Assembly: GCA_030583745.1 (NCBI GenBank)
Contig: CP129473.1
Location: 140,551-204,550, forward strand
Direction of reading: 5' to 3'
From: Minisyncoccota bacterium
GTDB taxonomy: Bacteria > Patescibacteriota > Minisyncoccia > Phycocordibacterales > BOKC01
Length of the DNA: 64,000 nucleotides
In this document: positions 8 to 52,837 of the stretch, piece by piece
Numbering within the stretch: position 1 is the stretch's first letter
Layout of the letters: every line of letters starts with the position of its first letter
Program-made: the position numbers and the translations under genes
The notes under the pieces: model-generated
Databases searched by the model: none
What the model saw: only the letters and a program-made list of their open reading frames with translations
Told to the model about the DNA's origin: nothing

Positions 8-60
8 CTATTGGCTATACCCTATACCCCAATCCCTAATTCAACCGTATTTCTCCCATC
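8..60. repeat. Dispersed tandem heptamer repeat (ACCCTAN)n copy A plus 24-bp match to the dprA 3' end
   Basis: cctattggctataccctataccccaatccctaattcaaccgtatttctcccatc; near-duplicate of 931..985. Confidence 0.7.
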
Positions 61-124
61 AATTTTTAGTAATCTTGAATTTAGCTTGAATTAAAATAAG
101 AGTATCGCAGAAAAAAATGGGAAA

Positions 125-165
125 CAAAAAACCGCTCCGTCTCGCGGGTGCGAGTGGAGCGGGTG
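125..165 (-). terminator. Rho-independent terminator for the Clp_N gene
   Basis: On the minus strand, GC hairpin ccgctcc...ggagcgg followed by a T-run. Confidence 0.5.
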
Positions 166-208
166 GGGACGGGTAGCTTGTCGAGAGAAGTTGAGTTGCC
201 GGCGCCAT

Positions 209-796
209 TCAGAGTTCAGGAAGCTCTTTTGCGATTACTCTCAACATCTTGGCGACAAGACGAGCGGACTCGGGCTTCAGTTTTTCAGCCCGCCTTGCGA
301 TTTCCAGTAGATCGGCTTGAATCTTCTCGACACTTTCACAGGCATCTCCCGGCGGAGTAAGGATCTTGAGAATCTCACTCCTTACTTTTTCGAGATCATT
401 GACGCCGACGCCGAGTTGCTCGAGAGCTTTGGCTGCAATACCGTCGCACTCGCGGATCAGGCCGAGGAGCAGGTGCTCGGTCCCGACGTAGTTGTGGTCG
501 AATCTCCGCGCCTCCTCGATGGCGTACTCGATGACCTTCTTGGCGAGCGGAGTCTGGGGTATGTGACCCCACATGGTGACCACCGGGCCGGCCTCGACGA
601 GTTTCATGACCTCGACACGGACCTTGTGCAGGTCGACGTCGAGGTTCTTGAGGACGTTCGCGCCGACGCCCGAGCCCTCCTTCACCAGGCCGAGCAGGAT
701 GTGCTCGGTCCCGATGTACTCGTGGTTGAAGCGCTGGGCCTCATGGTTGGCCAATTTCATGACCTTGCGAGCACGATCATGGAATCGCTCAAACAT
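209..796 (-). CDS. Stand-alone Clp N-terminal (Clp_N) double-repeat domain protein, GC-rich
   Basis: MFERFHDRARKVMKLANHEAQRFNHEYIGTEHILLGL and a second repeat FDHNYVGTEHLLLGLI, typical of the ClpA/ClpC N-domain. No AAA+ domain. RBS aaggag upstream of MFERF. ORF track 209..865 includes an N-extension. Confidence 0.7.
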   Translation of the reverse strand: MFERFHDRARKVMKLANHEAQRFNHEYIGTEHILLGLVKEGSGVGANVLKNLDVDLHKVRVEVMKLVEAGPVVTMWGHIPQTPLAKKVIEYAIEEARRFDHNYVGTEHLLLGLIRECDGIAAKALEQLGVGVNDLEKVRSEILKILTPPGDACESVEKIQADLLEIARRAEKLKPESARLVAKMLRVIAKELPEL

Positions 797-930
797 CTCA
801 AATCTCCTTGTTTTGTGCTGTTCTCCAGAAAACAACGCGCTTTCTGATGTTTTGTCTGTCAACAAAATAACACAATAAATTTATTTTTGTCAAAACAAAA
901 AATACCTGCTGTAGCCCTGGTCTTCCCCCC

Positions 931-985
931 CCTAAACCCTATACCCTATACCCTAATTCAACCGTATCTCCCCCATCTCCTCTTT
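931..985. repeat. Dispersed tandem heptamer repeat copy B; its 3' part encodes the dprA C-terminus
   Basis: cctaaaccctataccctataccctaattcaaccgtatctcccccatctcc. Confidence 0.7.
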
Positions 986-1816
986 AATCATCCCTTTTAT
1001 TTCCATAGCGGAAAGAAGAATTTGCGCTTGGCTCGGCGACAGTCCGCTTTGTCTAATCAACTCGTCTTTTTCCAAAGGTGTTTGTAAAAGCTCTATGATT
1101 ATTTTTTCTTCTTTGGTGCAATCGGAAAATTTATCTTCAAAATCTGTCTCTTCTTTTAGTCCCAAATATTCTCTCAAGTCTGCCGAATTTCTAACCACAT
1201 AAGCGCCGAGTTTAATAAGCATATTTGTCCCTTCCGAACTTCTGCTGAAAATTGAGCCGGGGATGGCCAAGACATCACGGTTGTATTCCGAAGCCAAGCG
1301 GGAGGTGATTAAGGTGCCGGATTTTATTTCGGCTTCCACCACCAAAACCGCCGAAGAGAGTCCCGCCATAACTCGGTTTCTTTGGGGAAAGGAGTATTGT
1401 GTGGCTTGAAAATCCGGCTCAAATTCGGAAATTAAACAGCCGCCTTTTTCCACTATTTTCTCCGCCAGATTTCTGTGCGAGCTCGGATAGAGAACTTTGT
1501 TAGACAGACCGGAGCCGGGCACTGCTATTGTTTTGAGGCCAATTTCTAGTGCCTTGCGATGAGCGATTGAATCCATTCCAAGCGCCAGCCCTGAAACAAT
1601 CACTACTTTTTCCCCGCGCAAGCCGTCAAGTATTTCTTCGCAGGCCGATTTGCCGTAAGGGGTAAATTTTCTGGAGCCAACGACGCAAAGCCAAGTAAAA
1701 TCCTCTGGTGGCAATTCTCCTCGAATAAAAAGGCGTTTTGGCGGGTCGGCAATTTCTTTTAAACACGCTGGCCATTTTTTTTCCGGCAGAACTTTTATTT
1801 CATCAGGTATTGGCAT
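953..1816 (-). CDS. dprA: DNA processing protein DprA/Smf
   Basis: Rossmann-like DprA core: VIVSGLALGMDSIAHRKALEIGLKTIAVPGSGL ... VLVVEAEIKSGTLITSRLA. Confidence 0.8.
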   Translation of the reverse strand: MPIPDEIKVLPEKKWPACLKEIADPPKRLFIRGELPPEDFTWLCVVGSRKFTPYGKSACEEILDGLRGEKVVIVSGLALGMDSIAHRKALEIGLKTIAVPGSGLSNKVLYPSSHRNLAEKIVEKGGCLISEFEPDFQATQYSFPQRNRVMAGLSSAVLVVEAEIKSGTLITSRLASEYNRDVLAIPGSIFSRSSEGTNMLIKLGAYVVRNSADLREYLGLKEETDFEDKFSDCTKEEKIIIELLQTPLEKDELIRQSGLSPSQAQILLSAMEIKGMIKEEMGEIRLN

Positions 1817-1878
1817 TATTTATTAATTCTAACATCTCTGTTATCATAGTGTTTATATTTATCCCTAAACTCTAAACA

Positions 1879-3147
1879 ATGTTAGACATTAAATTTATTA
1901 GAGAGAACAAAGAAATCATTTCCGAAAGCGCCAAAAAAAAGCGTGTTGAAATTGATTTGGACAAATTAATTGCTCTTGATGAAAAGAGAAGAGAGTTACT
2001 TGCCAAGACTGAAAATTTAAAGAGCCGGCAAAACCAAGCTAATGAAGGAGTCGTAAAATTGGCCTCGGACCCCGAACAAAAACAGAAACTGATTGAAGAA
2101 ATGCAGGCCTTAAAAAAAGAATTTCAAGACGGCGAATCAGAACTAAAGGAAGTAATGAAGGAGTGGCAGGGCTTGATGCTTGCGGTACCAAACATTCCTG
2201 ACGTTTCGGTGCCCGAGGGTAAGAGTGAGGAAGACAACGTGGAATTAAAAAAATGGGGAGAGATTCCGAAATTTGATTTTCCGGTCAAAGATCACGTTGA
2301 ATTGATGACGTCTAACGAAATGGTTGATTTTGAACGTGGGACAAAGGCGCACGGTTTTCGCGGCTATTTTCTTAAGAATGACGGCGCGCGACTTTCTTGG
2401 GCTGTTTGGAATTACGCTAGAGATTTTTTCTCCGGAGAGGGGGTTGAAGAAATTATTGCGCCATCAATCGTCAAAAAAGAATATTTTTATGGGACTGGTC
2501 ACTTACCGAGCGAAGCTGAAGATTTGTTCGAAACACAAGACGGTGATTATCTATCCGGTACTGCCGAAGTGCCGATGATGGCGTATCATTCCGGAGAGAT
2601 TTTGAAAAAAAGCGATTTACCTAAGAGGTTTTTAGCTTTTTCTCCTTGCTATCGCAGGGAAGCTGGAAGTCATGGTAAAGACACAAAAGGAATATTGAGA
2701 GTCCATGAGTTTTACAAATTTGAACAACTTATTTTATGTGAAGCCAGCCACGAAGAATCAGAAAAACTTCACGAAGAAATTACCAGAAAAAGTGAAGAGT
2801 TTATCGAGTCTCTTGGTCTGCCGTATCGACGGCTGATTGTTTGCACTGGCGATTTGTCATCTTCAAAAGTTAAGCAATATGAGCTTGAGCTCTGGATTCC
2901 GTCTCAAGAAAAATATAGAGAAATTGGAAGCGCCTCTTATTACCACGATTTTCAAACTCGGCGATTCAATATTCGCTACGACGACAACGGAGCGAAGCGT
3001 TATGCTCACTCCCTAAACAATACAGCAATCCCGACCCCGAGAGTCCTGATCTCTATTGTAGAAAATTTCCAGCAAGCTGATGGAAAAATTTTAGTGCCGA
3101 AAGTTCTTCGTCCATACCTTTCTGGTAGGGAATTTATTGGTTTGTAA
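1879..3147 (+). CDS. serS: Seryl-tRNA synthetase
   Basis: N-terminal coiled coil MLDIKFIRENKE plus class II aaRS core. Confidence 0.9.
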   Translation: MLDIKFIRENKEIISESAKKKRVEIDLDKLIALDEKRRELLAKTENLKSRQNQANEGVVKLASDPEQKQKLIEEMQALKKEFQDGESELKEVMKEWQGLMLAVPNIPDVSVPEGKSEEDNVELKKWGEIPKFDFPVKDHVELMTSNEMVDFERGTKAHGFRGYFLKNDGARLSWAVWNYARDFFSGEGVEEIIAPSIVKKEYFYGTGHLPSEAEDLFETQDGDYLSGTAEVPMMAYHSGEILKKSDLPKRFLAFSPCYRREAGSHGKDTKGILRVHEFYKFEQLILCEASHEESEKLHEEITRKSEEFIESLGLPYRRLIVCTGDLSSSKVKQYELELWIPSQEKYREIGSASYYHDFQTRRFNIRYDDNGAKRYAHSLNNTAIPTPRVLISIVENFQQADGKILVPKVLRPYLSGREFIGL

Positions 3148-4039
3148 AAATATGGCGCGAGACGGAATAAAACCCAAAACTTCAAAGCTGGCGCGAAAAA
3201 GAAAAAAAAGAGCTTTGGGGCGACTTGTTTTATTTTTTGTTTTTTTTGTATCAATAGTTGTTGGCTTATCTTTTTTGTCGTCGGTTGAATTTTTGTCAAT
3301 CAAGAATGTGGAGGTTGTTGGAGTCTCCGTTTTAAATTCTGAAGAAATTGGCAAGCTGGTTTTTAAAGAAATTGATAGTAAAAAATGGGGTCTGTTTGCC
3401 AACTCAAACGCCTTTCTTTATCCAAAGAGAAGAATTACCGGTCGGATTTTGGATTCCAACAATCGTATTGCTGATGCAAAAGTTTCGCTTGATGGTTTGT
3501 CTGACCTAAAAATTGAAATTCAAGAAAGAATGCCGTTTGGAATTTGGTGCTCTACGCCTGATTTGCCGGAAACACTGATCGAGAGTGAAGAAAATCTTGC
3601 GAGCGAAACACCCATGTCAAAACCTGAAGATTGTTTTTATTTTGACGATACAGGTTTTATATTTGAAAAAATTGCCGGCAACGAAAGTAACGAAAATAAT
3701 GATTACTTGTTTTATTACGGCGGAAATATAGAAAAGACGGTCGGTTCGTTTTTGACAACTGGTGAGATTTTTCAAAACTTGCAAACTTTTTTGAAATTAC
3801 TTACTAGTCTTTCAGTTCGTCCGGTAAAAATTTTCTTAGAGGGCACGGTAGAAGCTAAGATTGTGCTAGATTCGGGGACTGAAATTATTTTGGGTCTCGG
3901 TGAGAATTCAGAAAAATCTTTTGAAAATTTGGTTACTTTAATCAGTGAGCCGGAATTTCAGAATTCCAAAGACGGATTGTCTATGTTTGAAAACATTGAT
4001 TTAAGTTTTGGCCATAAGGTGCTGTATAGGTTAAGATAA
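3137..4039 (+). CDS. Cell division protein FtsQ/DivIB-like (N-terminal TM plus POTRA-like)
   Basis: Basic N-terminus, one TM, then IKNVEVVGVSVLNSEEI ... KIEIQERMPFGIWC, resembling an FtsQ POTRA domain. Confidence 0.5.
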   Translation: MVCKNMARDGIKPKTSKLARKRKKRALGRLVLFFVFFVSIVVGLSFLSSVEFLSIKNVEVVGVSVLNSEEIGKLVFKEIDSKKWGLFANSNAFLYPKRRITGRILDSNNRIADAKVSLDGLSDLKIEIQERMPFGIWCSTPDLPETLIESEENLASETPMSKPEDCFYFDDTGFIFEKIAGNESNENNDYLFYYGGNIEKTVGSFLTTGEIFQNLQTFLKLLTSLSVRPVKIFLEGTVEAKIVLDSGTEIILGLGENSEKSFENLVTLISEPEFQNSKDGLSMFENIDLSFGHKVLYRLR

Positions 4040-4048
4040 TTTTTCATT

Positions 4049-5038
4049 ATGCGGAAAAATTTTTGGCTAAATCTAGTGAAGCCGTTTTTTGTTTTGGCGC
4101 CAATGGCTGACGTGACCGACGTTGCTTTCAGGCGCATAATTGCTAAATATTCAAGACCTTTCGGCCCCGATGTTTTTTGGACGGAGTTTGTTTCGGCTGA
4201 CGGTCTTATTTTGGCTGATACAAAAGGCAGGAATAAACTTTTGAAAGATTTAACTTATTCGGAAAGTGAGCGGCCGATAGTCGCCCAGCTTTTTACTGCT
4301 CGACCGGAGATGATGGAAAAAGCAGCGAGATTGGTCTTGGAGCTTGGATTTGATGGTCTTGATATAAATATGGGCTGTCCTGATAGGGGAATAGAAAAAC
4401 AAGGAGCTGGCGCCGCTTTATGCAAGAAACCGGATTTGGCAAGGGAAATTATTAGAGCCGCAAAAAATGGGGTTTCAGATAAAATTCCAATTTCGGTAAA
4501 AATTCGGCTTGGTTACAACAAGGACGAACTTGATCCGCCAGTTGGTGGATGGTTGTCGGCAATTCTTGCCGAATCGCCAGCCGCTGTAACTATCCACGCT
4601 CGCACTAGAAAAGAGATGTCAAAAGTGCCGGCTAGGTGGGAGAGAGTTAAAAGAGCGGTGGAAATCAGAAATGAATTGAAAAGTAATTCGTTGATTATAG
4701 GTAACGGCGATGTCTTTGATTTGAACGATGCTAGAAAAAAAGCTGAAGAAACCGGAGCTGACGGCGTGATGCTTGGTCGGGCGATTTTTGGCAATCCGTG
4801 GTTATTTTCGGAAAAAGAACCAACCCCAGAAGAGCGCCTTAAAGTGCTTATTGAGCATATTAAACTTTTTGATGAATTACTTGGCAATACTAAAAACTTT
4901 TCGGTTATGAAAAAGCATTTCAAAGCGTATGTTAGCGATTGGGATGGAGCTAAAGAACTTCGAGAAAAACTTATGGAAACAGAGAGCGCAAAAGAGGCAG
5001 TTAGTGTTTTAAATAATTATCCAGCATTCAAACATTGA
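4049..5038 (+). CDS. dus: tRNA-dihydrouridine synthase
   Basis: LAPMADVTDVAFRRI ... DINMGCP ... TIM-barrel Dus motifs. Confidence 0.85.
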   Translation: MRKNFWLNLVKPFFVLAPMADVTDVAFRRIIAKYSRPFGPDVFWTEFVSADGLILADTKGRNKLLKDLTYSESERPIVAQLFTARPEMMEKAARLVLELGFDGLDINMGCPDRGIEKQGAGAALCKKPDLAREIIRAAKNGVSDKIPISVKIRLGYNKDELDPPVGGWLSAILAESPAAVTIHARTRKEMSKVPARWERVKRAVEIRNELKSNSLIIGNGDVFDLNDARKKAEETGADGVMLGRAIFGNPWLFSEKEPTPEERLKVLIEHIKLFDELLGNTKNFSVMKKHFKAYVSDWDGAKELREKLMETESAKEAVSVLNNYPAFKH

Positions 5039-5123
5039 CAGAATTCTTGGTTTTGTTATAATCTAAAAAGATTAGAGCAAGGCAAAAGGGCAAAAAGTGC
5101 CAAACAAGAAACAGGGAGGTCCC

Positions 5124-5411
5124 ATGCTGGTTTTGTCACGGAAGAAGGATCAAAAGATCGTCATCGAAGTCTTGAGGCCAGACGACACGACCGAACTCAT
5201 CGAGGTCACGATCGTGGATATTCGCGGAGATTCAGTTCGAGTCGGCATTGACGCTGATAAAGAACATAAAATCTTCTGCAAGGAAGATCTGGTTGAAGGC
5301 GCTCTTCCGAAAACTGGAAGCTGTCCGTCTAGGGCCGTTCAAAACTCGCGCAGTGCCACTGGGCCGAATCCTCCGAACCTCAAAGGTCGTACCATGCGGT
5401 TTGGTCGCTGA
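5124..5411 (+). CDS. csrA: CsrA-like carbon storage regulator with a C-terminal extension, GC-rich
   Basis: MLVLSRKKDQKIVI ... IEVTIVDIRGDSVRVGIDADKEHKIFCKE matches the CsrA fold pattern (MLILTRK...VRIGIEAPK...). RBS gggagg 6 nt upstream. ORF track start 5097. Confidence 0.55.
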   Translation: MLVLSRKKDQKIVIEVLRPDDTTELIEVTIVDIRGDSVRVGIDADKEHKIFCKEDLVEGALPKTGSCPSRAVQNSRSATGPNPPNLKGRTMRFGR

Positions 5412-5435
5412 AACAACCCAAAGAAGGAGGTGTTT

Positions 5436-5639
5436 ATGTTTCCGCCTCATTTTCCGCGTTTGGTTTTGGTGAGAGGGTATGAAGACTTCTTACCACCACC
5501 AGAAGTGGTGGCCGAACCCAAGCCCTTGCGAAGCAGAAGTGGTCGTTACCACCGATCGCCTCGGATACGAATCAGACATATGATGAATCCGAGGAAGAGG
5601 CGAAGTGGGCGACGTCGCTGTCGCAATCAGAAGTGGTAA
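5436..5639 (+). CDS. Small Arg-rich hypothetical protein
   Basis: RBS aaggagg 5 nt upstream of the ATG; highly basic C-terminus; no recognisable domain. Confidence 0.3.
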   Translation: MFPPHFPRLVLVRGYEDFLPPPEVVAEPKPLRSRSGRYHRSPRIRIRHMMNPRKRRSGRRRCRNQKW

Positions 5640-5731
5640 GGGTTGGCGGATGCCGGCCCAAATCCTGTTCCGTCAAGACGAGACGGACAGCGGAGCTGTC
5701 GTTTCCGAAAGTTTCCGAAAGGAGACCACGT

Positions 5732-5776
5732 ATGAAGCTCTGGCTTGTCGTTCTTTGCTACCTCGCTCTTTGCTGA
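5732..5776 (+). CDS. 14-aa hydrophobic peptide MKLWLVVLCYLALC
   Basis: RBS gaaaggag 7 nt upstream; immediately followed by two hairpins (terminator). Confidence 0.25.
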   Translation: MKLWLVVLCYLALC

Positions 5777-5831
5777 CCCCGCCATCCGGGTCAGCGTGAG
5801 GCCCCGCCGTTCGCACGGTGGGGTCTTTTTT
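5771..5831 (+). terminator. Tandem GC hairpins with a T-run (end of the first GC-rich transcription unit)
   Basis: ctgaccccgccatccgggtcag and ccccgccgttcgcacggtgggg then tctttttttt. Confidence 0.6.
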
Positions 5832-5859
5832 TGGCTAAAAATAAGGGTGTATTTCATTA

Positions 5860-5890
5860 TTGGCTATATCCCATACCCTAAACCCTAATT
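5860..5890. repeat. Dispersed heptamer repeat copy C
   Basis: ttggctatatcccataccctaaaccctaatt. Confidence 0.6.
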
Positions 5891-5934
5891 TATATTTGAC
5901 AAATAAAACGCTTTGTGCTAAGCTGTTAAGCAGA

Positions 5935-6421
5935 GGAGATAGAAAGAGGGAAGCGTAGTGCGACCCTCCAAATCAGCACATTGTTTAAGGGGGTGGTATG
6001 CCTTATTCCGGTTTTCCTCCGTAGCGGTCTGAATAAGACCGTCCGGAGGTGGAAGATGTTCGTTGCCCACGACTTCGAAAAGTCGCGGGCTGGATGTTAA
6101 CCTCAGAAAGAGGAGAACCCAAAATGCGGGTGATCATCGCTCTCCAGAACATCATTAACTGACCCGCGCGCCGCCGGCTTGGGCTGATCACATTGGGTGA
6201 TCGGCTCTGCCAGCCAAGAATTTGTGCTTTTCGCACAAATTCGCATTCTGGAAGGAGGTCTATGTGATCAAGAGTATTTGAGGGGCCGACCCCCACCCCT
6301 GCCGCAGGGTTAAGCGGTCCTTGCCAAGGGTCAAGGTGACGGCCTCTTCGCAGGCCAACCCTCAAACCAAACGTTGTTTGTACCGGGCCTCATCGCGCAC
6401 TATACGCGATGAGGCCTTTTT
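5935..6421 (+). ncRNA. Candidate GC-rich structured non-coding RNA, unknown family
   Basis: Promoter-like TTGACA-17-TAAGCT at about 5896..5925. About 490 nt with no ORF longer than 14 aa. Ends in a strong hairpin gggcctcatcgcgcactatacgcgatgaggcc plus T-run. Multiple GGA/AGGAGG motifs. Confidence 0.35.
6385..6421 (+). terminator. Rho-independent terminator
   Basis: gggcctcatcgcgc actata cgcgatgaggcc then ttttt. Confidence 0.7.
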
Positions 6422-6585
6422 CATTTTCATAATATCCCAAAAGGTTTATAATTCTTTGTATGAATCCAGTACGAAATCATAGTGTTATCAAATTAGGAAT
6501 TACTGGAAGAAGTGGAAATAGTGGTCGAATTAATTTAAATTTAATTTTTCAATACGGAAATTAAAAATTTCCTATTTCGTACGGG

Positions 6586-7638
6586 ATGAATGAAGAAATC
6601 GCTTTGTATAGAAAATACCGCCCGCAAAAATTTAGCGATGTTTTGGGGCAGGACCATATCGTCAAAGTTCTTGAGGGTTCGGTTCGCCTCAAAAGAATTT
6701 CGCACGCCTATCTTTTTACCGGCGCGCGAGGCACCGGCAAAACCAGTATTGCCAGAATTCTGGCCCGCGAGATCGGTTGCCAAGAAGAAGACCTTTACGA
6801 AATTGATGCCGCTTCAAACCGCGGTATAGACGACATTCGCGAGATTAAGCAATCAGTCTCGGCTTCGCCCTTTCGCTCACCCTATAAAGTTTATATCGTG
6901 GACGAAGTTCATATGTTGACTAAAGAAGCCGGGAACGCCCTTTTGAAAACTTTAGAAGAACCGCCTTCTTATGTTGTTTTTATTTTAGCCACCACCGAGC
7001 CGGACAAATTGCCAGAGACGGTTATTTCCCGTTGCCAAGTTTTTAATTTTAAAAGACCAAGCCAAGTTATTCTGCGTGATATGGTTTCGGCGGTTGCCAA
7101 AAAAGAGGGTTTTTCTCTTGAGCCATCGTCGGCTGATTTAATCTCTCTGCTTTCCGAGGGCTCTTTTCGCGACGCTCTGGGGATTCTGCAGAAAATTTTG
7201 AGTTTTTCCAAAGACAAGAAAATTTCTATTAAAGAAGTTGAAATGGTTACTGGCGCGCCGAAGGGTGAATTGGTCAACAAATTTATATCCTCAATCGCTA
7301 ATGGCGAATTAGAAAAAGGATTACAGGCGATTTCTGAAGTTGTGGGTCAGGATGTTGATATAAAGACATTTCTGAAAATTGTTTTGCAAAGAATCAGATT
7401 TACTCTGCTTTTGCGTCTGAAAGCCGGCTTGGATGAGGAAATTGAAAAAGAGTTGAAAAGTGAGGATTTCGAATTTCTTAAAAAATTGGCGGAGCAAAAA
7501 GATTCCAAAGTTAATTCTCATGCTTTACTAGAACTACTAGATGCTTACGAAAAAACAAACTCGTCACATATTGCGCAGTTGCCATTGGAGTTGGCGCTTG
7601 TAAAAATTCTCAAAAAAGATTCTGCTCTGGCCGAATAA
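6586..7638 (+). CDS. dnaX: DNA polymerase III subunit gamma/tau (short form)
   Basis: YRPQKFSDVLGQDHI ... TGARGTGKTS Walker A ... AAA+ clamp-loader motifs. Confidence 0.85.
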   Translation: MNEEIALYRKYRPQKFSDVLGQDHIVKVLEGSVRLKRISHAYLFTGARGTGKTSIARILAREIGCQEEDLYEIDAASNRGIDDIREIKQSVSASPFRSPYKVYIVDEVHMLTKEAGNALLKTLEEPPSYVVFILATTEPDKLPETVISRCQVFNFKRPSQVILRDMVSAVAKKEGFSLEPSSADLISLLSEGSFRDALGILQKILSFSKDKKISIKEVEMVTGAPKGELVNKFISSIANGELEKGLQAISEVVGQDVDIKTFLKIVLQRIRFTLLLRLKAGLDEEIEKELKSEDFEFLKKLAEQKDSKVNSHALLELLDAYEKTNSSHIAQLPLELALVKILKKDSALAE

Positions 7639-7699
7639 GTTTTCCACACTTTCAGATAAAATCTGGCCGATTTCGTGTATAATTTAAAGGTAAATTTAG

Positions 7700-8014
7700 A
7701 TGGATACTTTAAATATCGGCATTAAGCCGAAAGAGCCAAAAAATGGCAAGGGAATAATTTGGGGCGCGATTGCCATCTTGGTGGTCGTTGCTTTGTTAAT
7801 TTTCTTTTTCTTTTTTATGCCCGCCGAAAAGCCGGCCTCGTCTTTGTTGACGGAGGAAGAAAAGCAGCAAGTCAGGGATGAGCTAGCGTTGCCGCCTTTG
7901 ATAGAAATTACTGAAGATATGGCTGAGGAAATTAAGATAGATCTCTCTTCGCCGCCGACGGAAGAGTTGACAGACGAGGAAAAGGAAAGAATCCGAGAAC
8001 AATTAAGAAACTAA
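7700..8014 (+). CDS. Small membrane protein, hypothetical
   Basis: Single TM IIWGAIAILVVVALLIFFFFF followed by an acidic tail. Confidence 0.4.
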   Translation: MDTLNIGIKPKEPKNGKGIIWGAIAILVVVALLIFFFFFMPAEKPASSLLTEEEKQQVRDELALPPLIEITEDMAEEIKIDLSSPPTEELTDEEKERIREQLRN

Positions 8015-11891: not shown

Positions 11892-12659
11892 ATGTTCATT
11901 TCTCGCACAATTTTCAAAAAAGAAATAATATGCGAATTTTTGCCTCCAGCGCGTAAAACAAAAAGACAAAAAGTTATAATTCTTTGCCCGGGCGCGCCTG
12001 GTGCTCCACGTAGGGACGAAGTTCTAAAACTTATCTCCAAGAAGGGCTTTTGGGTTTTTAATCCCAGATATAGGGGCACGTGGGAGAGTCACGGTAAATT
12101 TTTGAAAAAGTCTCCACATCAAGATATTCTGGATATTATTTCGGAATTACCTAAAGGTTTTAGTGATTCTAAAACAGAGAAGAAAATTCGACTAAAACCC
12201 GAGAAAATTTTTCTTATCGGTTCAAGCTTTGGTGGCCCGGCTGCTATTTTGGCTTCAAAAGACAAGAGAGTGGAAAAAGTGTTTTGTTTTTCTCCAGTTA
12301 TTGATTGGTCTTATCCGAGTAAAGAAGAGCCCTTAGATTTGTTTGGGAAATTTATAAGAAAATACTTTGGTCGAGCGTATGATTTTGATTTAAAGGATTG
12401 GAAAAAACTTAAAAAAGGCAACTTTTATAATCCTATTTCCGAAACAGAAAATTTAGACGGTAGAAAAATTTTTATTATTCACGCCAAGGACGATCGGGTA
12501 GTTTCTTACAAACCAACTGTCAAATTTGCTAAACTAACCGGCGCCAGATTAAAACTGCTTCGGAGAGGAGGACACCTCGGCACTCGTTATCTTTTAGTAA
12601 AAAATCAAGCGATGAAAGATATTTTAAAATTTTTTAACTCCGAACAAAAAACATTCTAA
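11892..12659 (+). CDS. Alpha/beta hydrolase (GxSxG)
   Basis: IGSSFGG nucleophile elbow; dienelactone hydrolase/peptidase S9-like length. ORF track start 11826. Confidence 0.55.
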   Translation: MFISRTIFKKEIICEFLPPARKTKRQKVIILCPGAPGAPRRDEVLKLISKKGFWVFNPRYRGTWESHGKFLKKSPHQDILDIISELPKGFSDSKTEKKIRLKPEKIFLIGSSFGGPAAILASKDKRVEKVFCFSPVIDWSYPSKEEPLDLFGKFIRKYFGRAYDFDLKDWKKLKKGNFYNPISETENLDGRKIFIIHAKDDRVVSYKPTVKFAKLTGARLKLLRRGGHLGTRYLLVKNQAMKDILKFFNSEQKTF

Positions 12660-12683
12660 TATTCTATAGAATGTTGGAATGTT
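12650..12683. promoter_or_regulatory. 34-bp perfect palindrome, copy 1 (candidate operator/terminator)
   Basis: aacattctaatattctatagaatgttggaatgtt, 19 bp upstream of the ndh ATG. Confidence 0.5.
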
Positions 12684-14775: not shown

Positions 14776-14809
14776 AACATTCCAACATTCTATAGAATGT
14801 TGGAATGTT
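14776..14809. promoter_or_regulatory. 34-bp palindrome, copy 2
   Basis: aacattccaacattctatagaatgttggaatgtt, about 70 bp upstream of the ArsR-like gene. Confidence 0.5.
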
Positions 14810-14879
14810 GTGTGTTAAAATAAAGAAAATAAATTTTAAGATAAAATAAAATTAGAAAATTGAAATAAGAGAAAATAAA

Positions 14880-15149
14880 ATGAAAACAGCCAAACAGTTG
14901 GAAAGATATTTCAAGGGGTCAGCCAATCACTGGCGGATTGCTATTTTGCTTTTAGTTGAAAAAAATGACGGGATTACTGTGGAGGGAATTACCAAAAGTT
15001 TTGACAAATCTGATTTTAAAAATATTTCCCAACACACTCATCGCTTGGTTCAGGCTGGTCTTTTAAATAAAAAATACCAAGGGCGGCAAGTTATTCACCG
15101 ACTTTCGCCTTATGGATTGGCCTTTGTTAAATTTATAAAAACATTCTAA
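14880..15149 (+). CDS. ArsR/SmtB-family winged-helix transcriptional regulator
   Basis: WRIAILLLVEKNDGITVEGI...SQHTHRLVQAGLLNKKYQGRQVIHRL; 89 aa. Confidence 0.6.
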   Translation: MKTAKQLERYFKGSANHWRIAILLLVEKNDGITVEGITKSFDKSDFKNISQHTHRLVQAGLLNKKYQGRQVIHRLSPYGLAFVKFIKTF

Positions 15150-15173
15150 TATTCTATAGAATGTTGGAATGTT
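15140..15173. promoter_or_regulatory. 34-bp palindrome, copy 3
   Basis: aacattctaatattctatagaatgttggaatgtt; overlaps the ArsR-like stop codon, 14 bp upstream of the Nudix ATG. Confidence 0.5.
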
Positions 15174-15186
15174 TTCTTGGTAAGAA

Positions 15187-19886: not shown

Positions 19887-19933
19887 AAAACCCCAACTGC
19901 CAAGTAGCAAGCCGGGGAATAATGATCGGAGCA

Positions 19934-39947: not shown

Positions 39948-39994
39948 TTTTAAAAAGTTTTTAGACACTACCTTTTTCTATTGATAAAAATCTA

Positions 39995-40022
39995 TTATTT
40001 GTTATAATATAAAAAGTTGTAA
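39995..40022 (+). promoter_or_regulatory. Strong sigma70-like promoter in AT-rich DNA driving the GC-rich gene
   Basis: TTGATA, 16-nt spacer, TATAAT. Confidence 0.5.
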
Positions 40023-40125
40023 GTTTGTTCTTTGTCGTTGAGTTGTTTTATGAAGAGGGTAGTGTGTTGCTACTCTCATCACCCCCCGTCCTATTTCTTG
40101 GAGGACATACTGAAAGGAGCGAAAA

Positions 40126-40992
40126 ATGTTGGAGATTTTCCGTTTTGACTTGAGAGAGAATCCGAAGACGGGCAAGCCTCAGTGGCAGGCCCGACGGAAA
40201 GGCAGAGACGGCACGACGTGTTATATTGTCCCTGATGAGAGTCCCAGATTCCCCTCGTATGAGCAGGATGTTTGGCTCTGCGAGATCGGGGATCCGGTCT
40301 TCCTGTATCAGGACAAGAAGTCCCGAGTCGTTCAGGTCCGGCTCATCGCGCCGTGGCCGGAGAGGATGAAGCTTCTCTTTGTGCTTGGAGAGCGCGACGA
40401 GAAGCCCTTCTGGAGCGCGTCCGGGCGTGTCGGACCGGTGAATGTCACTTTCGTTGTCCACAAGTACAGCGAGGTGTCGCCTGATGAGACCAGTCCCGTC
40501 TGGAACTGCGGGCTGGATACCTTCATCATGGCCCAGAACCAGTACCGGATCATCGTTCCGGTTTGGCCGGAAGGACCGGTGGAAACCGAGCTCAGGACTC
40601 TTGACTTCACTGAAGACGAGAGCCCTGAAGGACGAGCCCAATTCGCCTGCCAATCGGCAAGCGACGGGGTCACCGTCAGGTATGTGGTTGACCGAGACCA
40701 CTACCTGCGCGTCAAAAACTCTGGCGAGTCCCGCTGGAGTTGTGCCTTCAAGCGGGATCTCTACACAAGCCCACTCTCCCGTGTGATCGCGGTCGTTCCC
40801 GTGTCTCCTGTGCCTCTCACCGCCCGAGGGAAAAGGCGACGGGAGAGACGTGAAGAGAGGGCGATTCGCAAGGCAGCAAGGCTCGAGGCCGAGCGCGAAT
40901 CGGCTCGGAAGCGCGCTGCCGAACGTCTGACGGGTGGTGGCACCCGGCGCTCCAACGGCGGTAAGAACAACAAGAAGGCTGCCACTACCTAA
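40126..40992 (+). CDS. GC-rich hypothetical protein with a basic C-terminal tail
   Basis: RBS gaaaggag; protein-like composition. The antisense ORF 40048..41058 is a GC shadow. Confidence 0.55.
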   Translation: MLEIFRFDLRENPKTGKPQWQARRKGRDGTTCYIVPDESPRFPSYEQDVWLCEIGDPVFLYQDKKSRVVQVRLIAPWPERMKLLFVLGERDEKPFWSASGRVGPVNVTFVVHKYSEVSPDETSPVWNCGLDTFIMAQNQYRIIVPVWPEGPVETELRTLDFTEDESPEGRAQFACQSASDGVTVRYVVDRDHYLRVKNSGESRWSCAFKRDLYTSPLSRVIAVVPVSPVPLTARGKRRRERREERAIRKAARLEAERESARKRAAERLTGGGTRRSNGGKNNKKAATT

Positions 40993-41007
40993 ACCTAACA
41001 ACTCAAT

Positions 41008-41036
41008 ACCGCACCTGCACCCCCGAGCCGTATGGG
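41008..41036 (+). terminator. Rho-independent terminator
   Basis: cacccccgagccgtatgggggtgtttttt. Confidence 0.7.
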
Positions 41037-41170
41037 GGTGTTTTTTGTTGATAAACAAATATCCGAGAGTAGTAACCGCTCTCGGTTTATTTTTTTTTAT
41101 TCTCTGTGGATTTTATTGTTGAAAATAAATAAGATAAGGTATAAAATTCTTTTCCAGGTTAATAGTTCTT

Positions 41171-41584
41171 TTGGTCGGGTGTCCGACCGGCTATTGCCGA
41201 AACCCTCAAAGAAAAGGGGTAATCGTGGAAGAGGAAGTTCCGACAATCAATGGGGCGAGGGACATGGACAAGATCGTGGAGGGAAAGAAGGTCAAGGTCG
41301 TCGGGGTCTGGATCAGAGTCACACCACAGAGTCCCATGACTCTGACTGTGACTGACTCCGCCGGGGAGATCAACTTCATCTGGTCTGATCCATATGTTCA
41401 GCCCACTACTAACATGCCGGGGTGCTGGGAGATGACGGTCAACAGCGAGATGGTGAAACTTGTGGGTTTCTACACCGTTTCTTCGGTTTCTGGGGGGCCG
41501 ATTCTTGAGCCGGAGCGCCCCAAATACTGGGGCAAAAAAGCCGTGAAGATTGACCGTGGGCGCAGTCCGGTTCACCACACCTGA
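41171..41584 (+). CDS. GC-rich hypothetical protein
   Basis: Probable GTG start at 41226 with RBS aaagggg; the antisense ORF is a shadow. Confidence 0.45.
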   Translation: MVGCPTGYCRNPQRKGVIVEEEVPTINGARDMDKIVEGKKVKVVGVWIRVTPQSPMTLTVTDSAGEINFIWSDPYVQPTTNMPGCWEMTVNSEMVKLVGFYTVSSVSGGPILEPERPKYWGKKAVKIDRGRSPVHHT

Positions 41585-41602
41585 AGGAGGCACACACTCA
41601 AA

Positions 41603-41638
41603 CCTCGCGCCAGACGGCTGGCGTGGGGTTTTTTTTAT
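41603..41638 (+). terminator. Rho-independent terminator
   Basis: cgcgccagacggctggcgtgggg tttttttt. Confidence 0.65.
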
Positions 41639-41952
41639 CCAATTTTTGAAGCCAATATAAAATCGTTTTCAGTCAAACCGCCGACTGAATGAGTAGAGAT
41701 TGAAATTTTGACTTTATTCCAATTAAAAATCAGAATGTCCGGGTGATGGCCCTCGTCTTCAGCGATTTTTCCAACTTTATTGACGAATTCCAGCGCTTTT
41801 GGAAAATTTTCAAATTCAATTTTTTTTTCTATTTTTTTGCCATCTCCCGAGAGCCCCCAGTCTGGTATTTCTTTTAGAAAATTATTTATCTCAAGAGAAT
41901 TTAACAACCCCCTACCGTTCTCGCAAGGAATACATTTTTTATTTTTTAACAC
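41635..41952 (-). CDS. Pterin-4a-carbinolamine dehydratase
   Basis: EGHHPD motif. Confidence 0.8.
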   Translation of the reverse strand: MLKNKKCIPCENGRGLLNSLEINNFLKEIPDWGLSGDGKKIEKKIEFENFPKALEFVNKVGKIAEDEGHHPDILIFNWNKVKISISTHSVGGLTENDFILASKIG

Positions 41953-48131: not shown

Positions 48132-48135
48132 AACT

Positions 48136-48921: not shown

Positions 48922-49002
48922 ATTGGAGATGAGTTAGTATTGTGTTAGTATAAACTTTAATACCCCTAGTAAGTTAAGAAAGGGGGTTTTGTTGCTTGTT
49001 TT

Positions 49003-51591
49003 ATGCAAAAAAATTCAGGAGACAAGATAATAGTGCGTGGCGCTAGAACTCATAATTTAAAAAATATCACGGTAGAAATGCCGAGAAACAAGATAACCGT
49101 GATAACCGGTCTGTCGGGTTCCGGCAAATCGTCTTTGGCTTTTGATACGATTTTTGCCGAAGGGCAGAGGCGTTACATAGAATCCCTTTCTCCCTATGCC
49201 AGACAATTTTTGAGAATAATGCCCAAACCTGATGTTGATGAGATTTCGGGCCTGTCTCCGGCTATTTCTATTGACCAGAAATTTCGCTCCGGAAATCCGC
49301 GTTCAACAGTTGCGACTATGACCGAAATTTATGATTACCTGCGAATTTTGTTTGCCAGAATCGGCCGACCGCATTGTCTAATCTGCGGAAAAGAGATTGA
49401 AAAAATGTCACGTGAAGAGATAAAAAATTTAATTGTTAAAAAAATACGGGAAAAAATCACAAAATCAGGAAAAGAATCTACACTCGAAATATACTCTCCG
49501 GTTGTTCGAGGGCGAAAAGGTGAGTATTACCAACTACTCTACGACCTCTTAGGCAGAGGGTATTCAAAAGTTTCAATTGATGGGCAATTAAAAAGTCTAA
49601 GGCAACAAATTATTCTCTCCAAAAATAAAAAGCACAATATCGATATTCTTGTTGACGAGATTAAATTTTCCGATTTGTCCTTGTCAGTTCCGACAAACAA
49701 GGACTGGCAAGAAAGATTGGGAGAGGATTTGGAGAAAGCGCTTGAGGAATCAGAAGGTCTTGTAAAAATAATTTTTAATTTTGGAAAGACAGAAAAAGAA
49801 GAGTTCGTTTGGTCTACTAAATTCTCTTGTCCTTCAGACGGTTATTCGTATCCAGAAATAGAACCGAGAATGTTTTCTTTTAATTCTCCTTATGGAGCTT
49901 GCCAAGATTGCAATGGTCTTGGTACCAAACATTATTGGGGTTCTGAACCTTGTCCAAATTGTAATGGTTCAAGATTGAGAAAGGAGGCCTTAAAGGTCTT
50001 GATTTCCGGAAAAAATATAGTTGAAATCGGTAGTCTTTCAATTTCCGAAGCAGATGAATTTTTTGGAAATATTAAACTTAACAAGAAAGAAAAAGAAATT
50101 TCTGAAGTTGCAATCAGAGAAATAGTTTCTCGTCTGAAATTTATGATTAATGTCGGAATTGAATACCTGACTTTAGACAGGCGAGCCGGAACGCTTTCCG
50201 GCGGAGAAGCGCAAAGAATTCGCTTGGCAAGCCAACTCGGGTCTGGTCTGGTCGGCGCACTTTATGTTTTAGACGAACCAACAATTGGCCTACATGCTCA
50301 CGACAACAATCGACTGGTAAAAACTTTGGCCGAACTTCGAGACCTTGGTAACACAATAATAATTGTTGAGCACGACGAAGATACTATTTATTCTTCAGAT
50401 TACATTGTTGATATTGGTCCGGGAGCTGGAATTCATGGTGGAGAAGTGGTGGTTTCTGGTTTTTTGGAAAAATTATTGACCGAAGCAAATTCGTCAGCTA
50501 GCAGAAAAAATAATTCTCTGACCCTTGATTACTTGAGAGGTGATAACAAAATTCCGGTTCCGGAAAAAAGACGGGATACAGAAAAAGGCAAAATAATAAT
50601 AAAAGGTGGGAAAGTTTTTAATATAAAAAATTTAAATGCTGAAATCCCTCTCGGTAAATTTGTGGTAATAACCGGTCTGTCGGGCTCCGGTAAATCGTCT
50701 CTACTTTACGAAATTCTCCATAAAAATTTACAAGCCAGGTTTGATCGTAGATACAGAAGCGCAGAAATTTTTAATTGTCAGTCTTTTACTGGTACAGAAT
50801 ATCTAAACAGAGCAATTTTAATAGACCAGTCACCAATTGGCCGAACCCCGCGCTCTAACCCAGCGACTTATACCGGCGCATGGACTTTTATCCGCGAGCT
50901 TTTCGCCGAAACTTCCGAAGCTAAAGTCCGCGGTTGGAAACCTAGCCGTTTCTCTTTCAATGTCAAAGGTGGTCGTTGTGAAGCTTGCCAGGGTAATGGA
51001 ACCATAGAGGTTGAAATGCAGTTTTTGCCGACTGTTTATGTCACTTGTGATGTGTGCAACGGCCGTCGGTTTATGAAAGAAACTCTTGAGGTTAAATATA
51101 AGAAAAAAAATATATATGACGTCCTAAAGATGACAATAGAAGAAGCGCTTGATTTTTTCAAAGATATTCCGGGAGTTTACGACCGTTTGAAAACCATGGA
51201 CGAGGTTGGCTTGAGCTATTTAGAGCTTGGTCAGTCTGCTACCACGCTTTCTGGTGGGGAAGCGCAGAGAGTAAAGATTTCTTCCGAACTTTTTCGGCCC
51301 GATTTATACAAAACAATTTATCTTTTAGACGAGCCGACGGTCGGCTTACATTACGAAGATGTAAAAAAACTTGTTGAGATTCTTCAAAAATTGGTTGATA
51401 AGGGTAACACCGTCGTAACAATCGAACACAATATGGATTTCATAAAAAACTCCGACTACATTATTGATATGGGGCCGGAAGGTGGAGACAGAGGTGGTGA
51501 AATTGTTGCCAAAGGCACACCTGAACAAATTGCTCAATCTAAAGATTCCTATACCGGAGAATATTTGAGAAAAACTCTAAAGAAAGAATAA
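49003..51591 (+). CDS. uvrA: Excinuclease ABC subunit A
   Basis: Two ABC ATPase modules, Zn-finger CxxC pairs, LSGGEAQR twice. Confidence 0.95.
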   Translation: MQKNSGDKIIVRGARTHNLKNITVEMPRNKITVITGLSGSGKSSLAFDTIFAEGQRRYIESLSPYARQFLRIMPKPDVDEISGLSPAISIDQKFRSGNPRSTVATMTEIYDYLRILFARIGRPHCLICGKEIEKMSREEIKNLIVKKIREKITKSGKESTLEIYSPVVRGRKGEYYQLLYDLLGRGYSKVSIDGQLKSLRQQIILSKNKKHNIDILVDEIKFSDLSLSVPTNKDWQERLGEDLEKALEESEGLVKIIFNFGKTEKEEFVWSTKFSCPSDGYSYPEIEPRMFSFNSPYGACQDCNGLGTKHYWGSEPCPNCNGSRLRKEALKVLISGKNIVEIGSLSISEADEFFGNIKLNKKEKEISEVAIREIVSRLKFMINVGIEYLTLDRRAGTLSGGEAQRIRLASQLGSGLVGALYVLDEPTIGLHAHDNNRLVKTLAELRDLGNTIIIVEHDEDTIYSSDYIVDIGPGAGIHGGEVVVSGFLEKLLTEANSSASRKNNSLTLDYLRGDNKIPVPEKRRDTEKGKIIIKGGKVFNIKNLNAEIPLGKFVVITGLSGSGKSSLLYEILHKNLQARFDRRYRSAEIFNCQSFTGTEYLNRAILIDQSPIGRTPRSNPATYTGAWTFIRELFAETSEAKVRGWKPSRFSFNVKGGRCEACQGNGTIEVEMQFLPTVYVTCDVCNGRRFMKETLEVKYKKKNIYDVLKMTIEEALDFFKDIPGVYDRLKTMDEVGLSYLELGQSATTLSGGEAQRVKISSELFRPDLYKTIYLLDEPTVGLHYEDVKKLVEILQKLVDKGNTVVTIEHNMDFIKNSDYIIDMGPEGGDRGGEIVAKGTPEQIAQSKDSYTGEYLRKTLKKE

Positions 51592-51601
51592 TTCATAACG
51601 A

Positions 51602-52837
51602 ATGCGTTCAGATAGCAAAATGAATCCTTCGCTTGCTAAAAAAATAAAAAACCTGCCGGATTCTCCTGGTGTTTATTTATTTTCAGCGAGAGGGGGTAAA
51701 ACGGAAGACGAAAAAATTCTTTATATTGGTAAAGCCACGTCTCTTCGGAACAGGGTAAGAAGTTATTTTAATGGAAACTTATTATTTTCTCGCGGCCCCT
51801 TGATTGCCAAGATGGTTGAGGAAATAAAAAATATAAAGTATCAAAAAACCGATTCTGTCCTTGAGGCGCTTATCTTAGAGGCCAATTTAATTAAAAAATA
51901 CAAACCGAAATACAATACTCAAGAAAAAGATGACAGGAGTTGGAATTATATTGTGATAACCGACGAAGATTTCCCTAGAATTCTCACCATCCGCCAAAAA
52001 GAACTCGCCCTAGACCCTAAACCCTATACCCTAATGGCTAGCTTCGGTCCTTTCCCCCACGGAAACCAATTAAAAGAGGCCTTGAGAATTCTTAGAAAAA
52101 TCTTTCCTTTCTACTCGAGCGACACAAAAAACACCCAAGGTGAAAGATTTTACAAAGAAATAGGATTGGCTCCAAACCAAAACAAATCTGACTATCAAAA
52201 AACAATTAGTCATCTAAAACTCTTCCTTGAGGGTAAGAAAAAACAAATTATTTTTAATCTAGAAAAAGAGATGATGGGTGAAGTCAAAAAACTCAATTTT
52301 GAAAAAGCGGGGGAGTTGAGAAACAAAATATTTGCTTTAAAACACATACAAGACATTGCCTTACTGAAGAATTTGGATGAAAGTGGTGTAGACCAAGGGA
52401 ATTTTCGAATAGAATCTTATGACGTGGCACATATTTCAGGGACATTTATGGTTGGCGTGATGGTTGTCCTTGAAGAAGGAATTTTCAAAAAAAGTCAGTA
52501 CAGAAAATTTAAAATAAAAAAAACAGAAGGAGGCGACACATCAGCTCTATCTGAAATTATCGATAGAAGATTTAACCACGCCGAATGGCAGATGCCAAAT
52601 CTTGTCTGCGTTGATGGCGGAATAGCACAAAAAAACGTAGCAGAAAAAATTTTAAGAAAAAAAGATTTATTCATTCCGGTAGTTTCAGTTGTTAAAGACA
52701 AAAAACACAAACCGAAACAAATCCTCGGGGATAGAAAAACGATTGGTAATCGGCAAAAAGAGATTCTTCTCATCAATCAAGAAGCTCATCGTTTCGCCTT
52801 ATCTTTTCATAAAAAATTGAGAGACAAAATTAATTGA
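51602..52837 (+). CDS. uvrC: Excinuclease ABC subunit C, short form lacking the C-terminal HhH domain
   Basis: GIY-YIG N-terminus GVYLF..ILYIGKA; UVR domain; RNase H-like endonuclease region. Confidence 0.8.
   Translation: MRSDSKMNPSLAKKIKNLPDSPGVYLFSARGGKTEDEKILYIGKATSLRNRVRSYFNGNLLFSRGPLIAKMVEEIKNIKYQKTDSVLEALILEANLIKKYKPKYNTQEKDDRSWNYIVITDEDFPRILTIRQKELALDPKPYTLMASFGPFPHGNQLKEALRILRKIFPFYSSDTKNTQGERFYKEIGLAPNQNKSDYQKTISHLKLFLEGKKKQIIFNLEKEMMGEVKKLNFEKAGELRNKIFALKHIQDIALLKNLDESGVDQGNFRIESYDVAHISGTFMVGVMVVLEEGIFKKSQYRKFKIKKTEGGDTSALSEIIDRRFNHAEWQMPNLVCVDGGIAQKNVAEKILRKKDLFIPVVSVVKDKKHKPKQILGDRKTIGNRQKEILLINQEAHRFALSFHKKLRDKIN
52008..52041. repeat. Dispersed heptamer repeat copy E, located in-frame inside uvrC
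   Basis: ccctagaccctaaaccctataccctaatggctag encodes LDPKPYTLMAS. Confidence 0.55.

Follow-up and report, generated by a model that had tools for sequence, protein, structure and literature searches.

This report concerns five short tandem arrays of a telomere-like heptamer found in a 64,000-nucleotide stretch of the genome of a Minisyncoccota bacterium (assembly GCA_030583745.1, contig CP129473.1, positions 140,551 to 204,550 of the forward strand; hereafter the window, in whose coordinates positions are given unless stated otherwise). The five loci probably belong to one family of short heptanucleotide tandem repeats (microsatellites) that is specific to the lineage, and are neither telomeres nor dedicated recombinase sites. 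The arrays form one family, are specific to certain lineages, vary between strains in steps of 7 bases and occur in frame within coding sequences; at one locus the gene cassettes beside them are polymorphic. A preliminary description of the same DNA had presented the loci as marks of insertions rich in guanine and cytosine (GC) and of gene fragments, and as possible recognition sites of a recombinase. The overall GC content of the window is 0.40, the homologues of its UvrC and DprA proteins are labelled Parcubacteria, Paceibacteria or Patescibacteria, and its predicted gene content is typical of a reduced genome of the candidate phyla radiation.

Five arrays of a seven-base unit

Arrays 1 (8–41), 2 (926–958), 3 (5858–5890) and 5 (52008–52041) carry their C-rich strand on the plus strand, and array 4 (30062–30108) is a minus-strand copy with its G-strand on plus. 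Written unit by unit, array 1 reads TTGGCTAT ACCCTAT ACCCCAA TCCCTAA, with an in-phase unit TGGCTAT preceding ACCCTAT, and belongs to the distal copy of a 46-base direct repeat described below. Array 2 reads CCCTAA ACCCTAT ACCCTAT ACCCTAA, or TAGGGTA TAGGGTA TAGGGTT TAGGGGG on its G-strand, and array 3 reads TTGGCTAT ATCCCAT ACCCTAA ACCCTAA. Array 4 is composed of TAGGGTC TAGGGGT TAGGGTA TAGGGTT TGGCCAC TAGCCAA, and array 5, which lies in frame within uvrC, of CCCTAGA CCCTAAA CCCTATA CCCTAAT GGCTAG.

The unit is TAGGGTN on the G-strand (ACCCTAN on the C-strand), together with an in-phase variant TAGCCAN. Tandem Repeats Finder calls period 7 at four of the five loci, and with the TAGCCAN unit included the heptamer phase is evident at all five, as a head-to-tail 7-base repeat; the arrays are direct repeats, and none has a nearby inverted partner in the window. 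Five arrays of three or four ACCCTAN units had been listed in the preliminary description, and all are present where it placed them. Chance is ruled out: the pattern ACCCTANACCCTA, with at most one mismatch, matches 11 times in the 64 kb against 0.14 expected, and none of 100 shuffles reaches 11. The ggctat or ggctag border noticed at that stage is likewise real and corresponds to the in-phase variant unit TAGCCA[A/C], which keeps the 7-base register. A separate recognition element, a "GGCTAT box", was considered and rejected: at up to one mismatch, the 6 occurrences of TAGCCAATAG do not significantly exceed the 2.5 expected, and the box stands in heptamer phase. Single units outside the arrays are not enriched in the window (CCCTA 11 against 15.1 expected, TAGGG 35 against 26.1 expected, full heptamers 0–3), so that the element is the array and not the unit.

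The units CCCTAAA and CCCTAA equal, on the C-strand, the telomere repeats of the plant and vertebrate types, a likeness that could point to true telomere-related sequence, to a eukaryotic contaminant or to an assembly chimera joined at shared repeats. Such an origin is scarcely credible. The likeness is superficial: the arrays are internal, consist of only 3–4 mixed units and have bacterial genes on either side, array 5 lies in an intact uvrC whose orthologues carry the array too, and other assemblies run through the flanks without a break. Over positions 713–7836, which span arrays 2 and 3, the Logan contig L001 and the window are 100% identical. Arrays are also present at the dprA and array 3 sites, with the same junctions, in independent contigs from other samples, taken from metagenome-assembled genomes (MAGs) or Logan (L127 and L213–L216). 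An assembly artefact is thereby ruled out for the arrays.

Within Patescibacteria the family is lineage-specific. The 80 Patescibacteria uvrC loci examined (47–55% protein identity; 522,260 bases in all) are free of arrays of two or more units, as against five arrays in the 64 kb of the window. A scan for exact ACCCTANACCCTATACCCTA, counting one genome per species, returned at least 120 loci against roughly 4 expected by chance according to our estimate, and the matches listed come from MAGs of Patescibacteria, Bacteroidota, Chloroflexota, Planctomycetota, Elusimicrobiota, Cyanobacteria and other phyla. Outside Patescibacteria, many of the arrays among the matches listed are long, include other heptamers as well or form inverted pairs. 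In viral contigs the array pattern was found at 13 loci and two composition-matched controls at 47 and 5. Since tandem heptamers are common in general, the spread across phyla is best read as a general heptamer-repeat phenomenon and not as the dispersal of one mobile motif. At 20 Patescibacteria loci from the scan, about half of the arrays are in frame in open reading frames (ORFs) of more than 200 amino acids and encode (L)(Y/N/D)P(K/I)PYTL; examples are rsmA, murE, prmC and tpiA (two copies), gene names that were assigned from reading the translations. The coding strand is always the C-strand; the G-strand could not be read through, having TAG in every frame.

Canonical G-quadruplex (G4) motifs, i.e., four or more G3 tracts with loops of 1–7 bases, number exactly three in the 64 kb, and these are arrays 2, 4 and 5; arrays 1 and 3 have three G-tracts each. 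The G-strand array sequence TAGGGTATAGGGTTTAGGGTCTAGGG is a candidate G4, and its C-strand a candidate i-motif. An energy model prefers the G4 in arrays 2 and 5, and in array 4 it predicts a competing hairpin.

If the arrays are microsatellites, slipped-strand mispairing would create and remodel them in 7-base steps, and in the compact genome of a Patescibacterium they would persist only in harmless places. One such place would be the intergenic spacer, often right behind a stop codon, where arrays may be tolerated because the G-strand gives TAG in three frames within 21 bases. The other would be the variable protein loop, in which the C-strand is read as P-K-P-Y-T-L. Arrays would then neighbour acquired genes mainly because both gather in the same few tolerant spacers shortly behind genes. 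In addition, the arrays that are prone to form G4 might be more fragile, which could favour illegitimate joins in natural transformation.

Conservation and decay of the array in uvrC

Array 5 is read in frame in uvrC (51602–52837) as L-D-P-K-P-Y-T-L-M-A, within the variable linker between the GIY-YIG domain and the FGPFPHG motif, and there is no rearrangement nearby. Its 27 bases CTAGACCCTAAACCCTATACCCTAATG (LDPKPYTLM) are identical in the window and in two lineages whose UvrC proteins are 63% (L122) and 61% (L124) identical to that of the window. In a further lineage (L283, 63% protein identity) 26 of the 27 bases are retained, and the one change turns D into N. Elsewhere in uvrC, only 31.7% of the codons for residues identical in the window, L122 and L124 match; the array is a run of nine identical codons, and the next longest run is three. 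The array is recognisably decayed in L125 (56% protein identity), where it reads CTGCACCCTAAACCACATACCCTAAAC, and in L284 (58%), where it reads CTAAAACCTAAAACCTATAAGTTAAAG. No other arrays were found in the ~16–21 kb examined for each of L125, L126 and L284, the lineages with a decayed uvrC array. On this comparison the uvrC array is old; some lineages have preserved it at the DNA level, and in others it is decaying. In contrast, the intergenic array at dprA varies, both in its sequence and in how many units it has, among strains whose flanks match at 96%. Selection at the protein level may account for the residues of the uvrC array, given that its Tyr and Leu fit a Y-x-L pattern in most orthologues; it cannot account for the codons. 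The candidates for codon conservation are a function at the DNA or RNA level and conversion between units within the array.

Several points weigh against the microsatellite interpretation. A neutral microsatellite should drift at synonymous sites, and the uvrC array, the same over 27 bases in three lineages at 61–63% protein identity and one base off in a fourth, is therefore kept by something, be it function or intra-array conversion. Moreover, expansion of a 7-base repeat by one unit is impossible inside a reading frame, and the origin of the coding copies is not accounted for. Slippage itself is deduced from sequence comparison and not from direct observation. Finally, a role for G4 would be conjectural: three of the five arrays have four G-tracts, and for one of these, array 4, a competing hairpin is predicted.

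The same conservation would be expected of functional cis-elements under purifying selection, for instance tandem sites at which a lineage-specific protein binds DNA or RNA, or a regulatory G4 or i-motif; a factor acting in trans across the genome would keep them, and they would decay once that factor is lost. The heavy divergence of synonymous sites flanking the conserved uvrC array (27/27, 27/27 and 26/27 bases across lineages) is consistent with this explanation. So is the lack of other arrays where the uvrC array has decayed, set against five arrays in the window where it is kept, as well as the coincidence of the only canonical G4 motifs in the 64 kb with arrays 2, 4 and 5. However, the intergenic copies change fast between strains with 96% identical flanks, and array position and orientation are inconsistent relative to promoters, start codons and terminators. 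The evidence for conservation comes from one coding copy, and no candidate binding protein was identified. A cis-acting function of the arrays is on balance rather unlikely.

Conservation of nucleotides within a coding region could also be a trait of DNA uptake signals, comparable to the DNA uptake sequence (DUS) or uptake signal sequence (USS), which a naturally competent bacterium would maintain through a bias in uptake and recombination. In keeping with this, a copy is found in the DNA-repair gene uvrC and a second beside dprA, and inverted pairs occur in other genomes. Known uptake sequences occur roughly once per kb; the density of the arrays, ~1 per 13 kb, is far below this. In addition, single units are not over-represented outside the arrays, the arrays are tandem and not a unique 9–12-mer, and the in-frame copies of other Patescibacteria reside in unrelated housekeeping genes. 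A role in DNA uptake is thus very improbable.

Cassettes, relics and native neighbours of the arrays

Arrays 1 and 2 belong to the spacer between dprA and rplU. The stop codon of dprA (953–1816, minus strand) overlaps array 2, its TAG (953–955) being the first TAG of the array 2 G-strand. A relic of the dprA 3' end, a displaced and non-functional piece of 22 bases from the last seven codons (MGEIRLN and stop), is found at 39–60 on the minus strand and corresponds in sequence to the end of dprA in L127 and in L213. Array 1 and this relic together make up one copy of a 46-base direct repeat, 87% identical, which brackets a cassette named Clp_N-A (61–925, minus strand). The cassette has an AT-rich promoter and 5' untranslated region (797–925), a coding sequence (209–796, GC 0.57) and an intrinsic terminator (~128–165). 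Its product matches Pfam Clp_N (E=5e-33), and its best non-self homologues are ClpC N-domains of Planctomycetota/Phycisphaerae, with up to 76% identity. The exact Clp_N-A protein is not on record; its genomic context was obtained through a 95% homologue, P0241.

The contents of the spacer differ among related genomes. In L213–L216 the order is dprA, array, Clp_N-A, dprA 3' relic with array and TAGCCAATAGG, a second gene (Clp_N-B) and rplU; the array 1 sequence recurs between Clp_N-A and Clp_N-B in L213. The Clp_N-A cassette is missing from L127, L129 and L130. The spacer holds Clp_N-B alone in L127 (DprA 96% identical) and a small membrane ORF in L129 (DprA 80%), and it is empty in L130 (DprA 78%). 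There are thus four alternative contents: A and B, B only, a small membrane ORF, or nothing. The first bases of the window match the L213 relic, and the strain of the window therefore almost certainly has the A and B arrangement too. Homology between the window and L127 stops at position 938, within array 2, amid flanks that are 96% identical. The number of units at the dprA site is 4 in the window, 5 degenerate ones in L213, 2 plus a TAGCCAC unit and 2 more in L127, 1.5 in L129 and 1 in L130.

The coding part of Clp_N-A is likely of foreign origin, given its identity of up to 76% to Planctomycetota proteins and its GC content of 0.57. As a side observation, the presence of this Clp_N-only protein (window 209–796, minus strand; L213 7152–8629) in tandem with a resident paralogue that is 33% identical looks like horizontal transfer from Planctomycetota to a Patescibacterium. 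The stacking of a planctomycete-like gene beside a resident paralogue in an ultra-small bacterium bears on horizontal transfer in Patescibacteria and possibly on their host associations. The 80 bases upstream of the Clp_N-A and Clp_N-B start codons are ~70% identical, for which reason the two cassettes look like homologous versions of one locus from different lineages.

The 46-base repeat of L213 is identical over its first 35 bases, and the next ~130 bases are only ~65–70% identical. A plain tandem duplication is a poor fit as the source of this repeat, since the 35 identical bases adjoin far more diverged DNA and the two proteins in L213 are 33% identical. Homology-facilitated illegitimate recombination occurs in competent bacteria. 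The cassette might thus have entered by transformation: the incoming DNA would have crossed over by homology within dprA and been joined illegitimately at its other end, 22 bases ahead of the resident stop codon. By a second conceivable route, a circle would have been integrated through a single (Campbell-type) crossover within the 46-base repeat. Direct repeats around inserted DNA, such as the 46-base repeat around Clp_N-A, are also a trait of att or attC sites; an illegitimate join or a short-homology crossover explains this repeat equally well.

Array 4 lies in a spacer that collects gene remnants. The C-terminus of a histidine kinase, a relic of 23 codons with a GC content of 0.57 (30001–30072, plus strand; VWVASEGVGKGVEFVVELPTTRV and stop), reads into the array. 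BLASTP aligned it with the C-terminus of the kinase encoded at 26872–28452 (15 of 21 amino acids identical, E=8e-11). Since only 36 of its 72 nucleotides are identical and its GC content is 0.57, the relic derives from a different kinase gene; Pfam gave no match, the relic being too short. Downstream of the array stand a weak hicA-like relic (30214–30297, plus strand; Pfam HicA_toxin E=0.005, below the curated cutoff) and a unit of promoter, membrane ORF and terminator. The proximity to truncated genes reported for array 4 is therefore borne out, through the kinase relic that the array follows and the weak hicA relic near it.

Array 3 occupies the short spacer between the terminator of a small-ORF operon and the promoter of a GC-rich unit without an ORF. 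It is present in the window, in L127 (with one substitution) and in L213, and missing in L129 and L130. The GC-rich units on both sides are conserved in four lineages, so that these blocks are native and array 3 is no insertion edge. The first is a mini-operon (5430–5776, plus strand) with an Arg-rich ORF of 69 amino acids (5430–5639; beginning MFPPHFPRLVLVRGYEDFLPPPE), a hydrophobic ORF of 14 amino acids (MKLWLVVLCYLALC) and a terminator; a Pfam search of the mini-operon gave no match. The second is a transcription unit of ~490 bases (5925–6420, plus strand; GC 0.54) upstream of dnaX (6586–7638), with a promoter (TTGACA-17-TAAGCT) and an intrinsic terminator. The fold computed from its alignment predicts 66 pairs, and compensatory changes are seen at 16 of these. 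Rfam returned nothing relevant at E≤1 for 5000–6700 and 39900–41800, and a single transfer RNA at gathering thresholds for the whole window; the GC-rich blocks are accordingly neither ribosomal RNA nor a known RNA family. That the second unit is a divergent or extended signal recognition particle RNA, as its conserved motif GACCGUCCGGAGG and its place upstream of dnaX might suggest, is only a guess.

Further small elements were seen in this neighbourhood. The gene csrA (5124–5411, plus strand) stands between promoter and mini-operon in the window, L127 and L213 lineages only, and not in L129 or L130. Its central part (5166–5287) has no detectable homology to L127, despite flanks that are 90–96% identical. 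At the array 3 spot, L130 has an insertion of ~200 bases (~5900–6140 of its own sequence, reverse strand) bounded by the inverted repeat GGGGTTGACCCCCACGCC ... GGCGTGGGGGTTGAC; the same spacer thus takes different small elements in different lineages.

The surroundings of the five arrays leave the proposed link to GC-rich insertions standing in part. That three of the five lie at the edges of GC-rich blocks is only loosely true. The GC content of the 200-base array flanks is indistinguishable from that of random positions (P=0.43). The arrays do mark insertions or gene fragments structurally at loci 1, 2 and 4, and do not at loci 3 and 5, so this is not a general rule. Comparison of the adjacent blocks between strains gave a similarly divided answer, with a Clp_N-A cassette that is strain-variable and array 3 blocks that are native in four lineages.

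These arrangements also bear on the idea, essentially that of the preliminary description, that arrays and the adjacent gene 3' end act as att-like crossover sites. Promoter-bearing cassettes would be captured or exchanged there, either through short-homology recombination or with the help of a recombinase whose gene lies elsewhere. The bracketing of Clp_N-A by a 46-base repeat of dprA 3' end and array, identical in its first 35 bases in L213, would fit such sites, as would the four different contents of the dprA–rplU spacer, the break of strain homology within array 2 and the displaced kinase 3' relic that precedes array 4. However, among the ORFs submitted to Pfam, which comprise nearly all long plausible genes of the 64 kb, no integrase, transposase, resolvase or recombinase domain was found, and the arrays lack an inverted-repeat core and the inverted-repeat architecture of att or attC sites. 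No rearrangement is seen at arrays 3 and 5. The GC-rich cassettes at 40–41.6 kb (40126–40992 and 41225–41584) and the GC-rich class II aminoacyl-tRNA synthetase genes at 56–59 kb (56.3–58.9 kb) are free of arrays. The ~70% identical 5' regions of cassettes A and B fit homologous cassettes joined by transformation and an illegitimate join, which makes a site-specific step unnecessary. Every variable spacer begins right behind a gene end, where the array happens to be. That the arrays are crossover sites of this kind is accordingly unlikely, and the claim of a recombinase site was not sustained.

A more speculative proposal, and something of a long shot, is that a lineage-specific activity acting in trans (sequence-specific binding, repair or templated synthesis) writes or preserves (TAGGGTN)n across the genome of some Patescibacteria, even in essential genes, and that the arrays are integrase-free entry points for foreign, promoter-bearing cassettes in natural transformation. 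If true, this would jointly explain the uvrC array in four lineages, its decay where other arrays are missing, and the arrangement of Clp_N cassettes in tandem between repeats that contain an array.

Known repeat systems and other elements of the window

Heptamer repeat families of bacteria have been known since 1990, and to our knowledge there is no agreed generating mechanism or function for them. The arrays have the defining features of such families that were tested: a tandem 7-mer, dispersal above chance, lineage specificity and variation by whole units. Heptamers are over-represented in bacteria, with lineage-specific families whose origin and mechanism are described as unexplained (PMC4692102, PMC4679880). 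Known examples are STRR in Calothrix and Nostoc, GGGAATC in Xanthomonas and GGGGA(T/C)T in Nostoc (PMC4692102), as well as TAACTGA in Beggiatoaceae, Cyanobacteria and Bacteroidetes (PMC4679880). Like the arrays, the cyanobacterial STRR, the Nostoc GGGGA(T/C)T and the Xanthomonas GGGAATC repeats are tandem, 7-base, dispersed and mostly intergenic, with a unit specific to the lineage (PMC4692102). They further share a number of copies from few to tens, length and sequence that vary between close relatives, a G-rich strand prone to form G4, and inverted pairs (for the present arrays, in other genomes). The family described here differs from them in its unit TAGGGTN, its very short arrays (3–4 units) and its host from the reduced Patescibacteria. 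It also differs in having in-frame copies in housekeeping genes, one of them conserved at the nucleotide level across lineages at ~60% protein identity. The TAACTGA repeats resemble the arrays as a specific heptamer in sets of 2–6 copies, patchy across distant phyla, with no evident transfer mechanism and occasionally inside ORFs; at some loci they have been proposed to take part in gene rearrangement (PMC4679880). Unlike the arrays, which stand after stop codons, between transcription units or within genes, they are mostly found immediately before start codons, a position suggestive of translational control (PMC4679880).

The integron attC sites and their gene cassettes offer a likeness in the short repeat at a cassette boundary right behind a gene 3' end and in the tandem cassettes at one locus. 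They differ in that the present locus has no integrase and no imperfect palindrome of the attC type, its cassettes have their own promoters and terminators, and the repeat includes the duplicated 3' end of the neighbouring gene. The G4 at pilE of Neisseria gonorrhoeae, reportedly a G-quadruplex that initiates recombination (Cahoon and Seifert, 2009), is also a short motif of G3 tracts beside a locus with recombination-driven variation. It is, in contrast, a single dedicated site with an associated small RNA promoter and experimental proof, whereas the G4 of the arrays is predicted only. The palindromic elements of Rickettsia are palindromic in-frame gene insertions of roughly 100–150 bases. 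They share with the arrays the tolerance of a dispersed repeat in frame within variable loops of conserved protein genes, and they differ from the 21–35 bases of tandem heptamers seen here, which have no palindrome. A full-text literature search for the array strings returned no paper, and one on heptamer repeats and Patescibacteria returned nothing specific.

New here are a telomere-like, G4-prone unit in a reduced genome of the candidate phyla radiation, in-frame arrays in housekeeping genes of many Patescibacteria, and one array frozen at the nucleotide level over deep divergence alongside intergenic kin that vary between strains. This contrast between frozen and variable copies provides a handle on whether such repeats are selected elements or mutational by-products.

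Other repeats and GC-rich units were noted in the window. The region 39980–41640 (plus strand) holds two GC-rich (0.55–0.59) units of one gene apiece, with separate promoters and terminators; their proteins, one of 288 amino acids with a Lys/Arg-rich tail and one of ~119 amino acids, have no Pfam match. The first of these promoters resembles the promoter at 5034–5070. Two inverted repeats of 150 bases (53958–54104 and 63226–63371), 98% complementary, bracket 9.2 kb (genes at 54095–63310); two radical-SAM genes of opposite orientation have their ribosome-binding site and start within these repeats. The bracketed DNA holds a thymidylate-synthase-like gene and, in tandem, three paralogous aminoacyl-tRNA synthetase genes of class II (Asp/Asn/Lys-type), two with a GC content of 0.54–0.58 and one of 0.43, nearer the genome average. 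A palindrome of ~34 bases (AACATTCCAACATTCTATAGAATGTTGGAATGTT) occurs in three intergenic copies (12643–12683, 14776–14811 and 15138–15175) beside NDH-2-like, YceI-like and NUDIX genes, and may be an operator or a terminator. Furthermore, a 61-base direct repeat, 93% identical (18976–19036 and 21191–21251), surrounds an uncharacterised ORF and a GC-richer MvdD-like ATP-grasp gene (19934–21019, minus strand); the region 18976–21251 may be a locus for a ribosomally made peptide (RiPP type) with duplicated leader regions.

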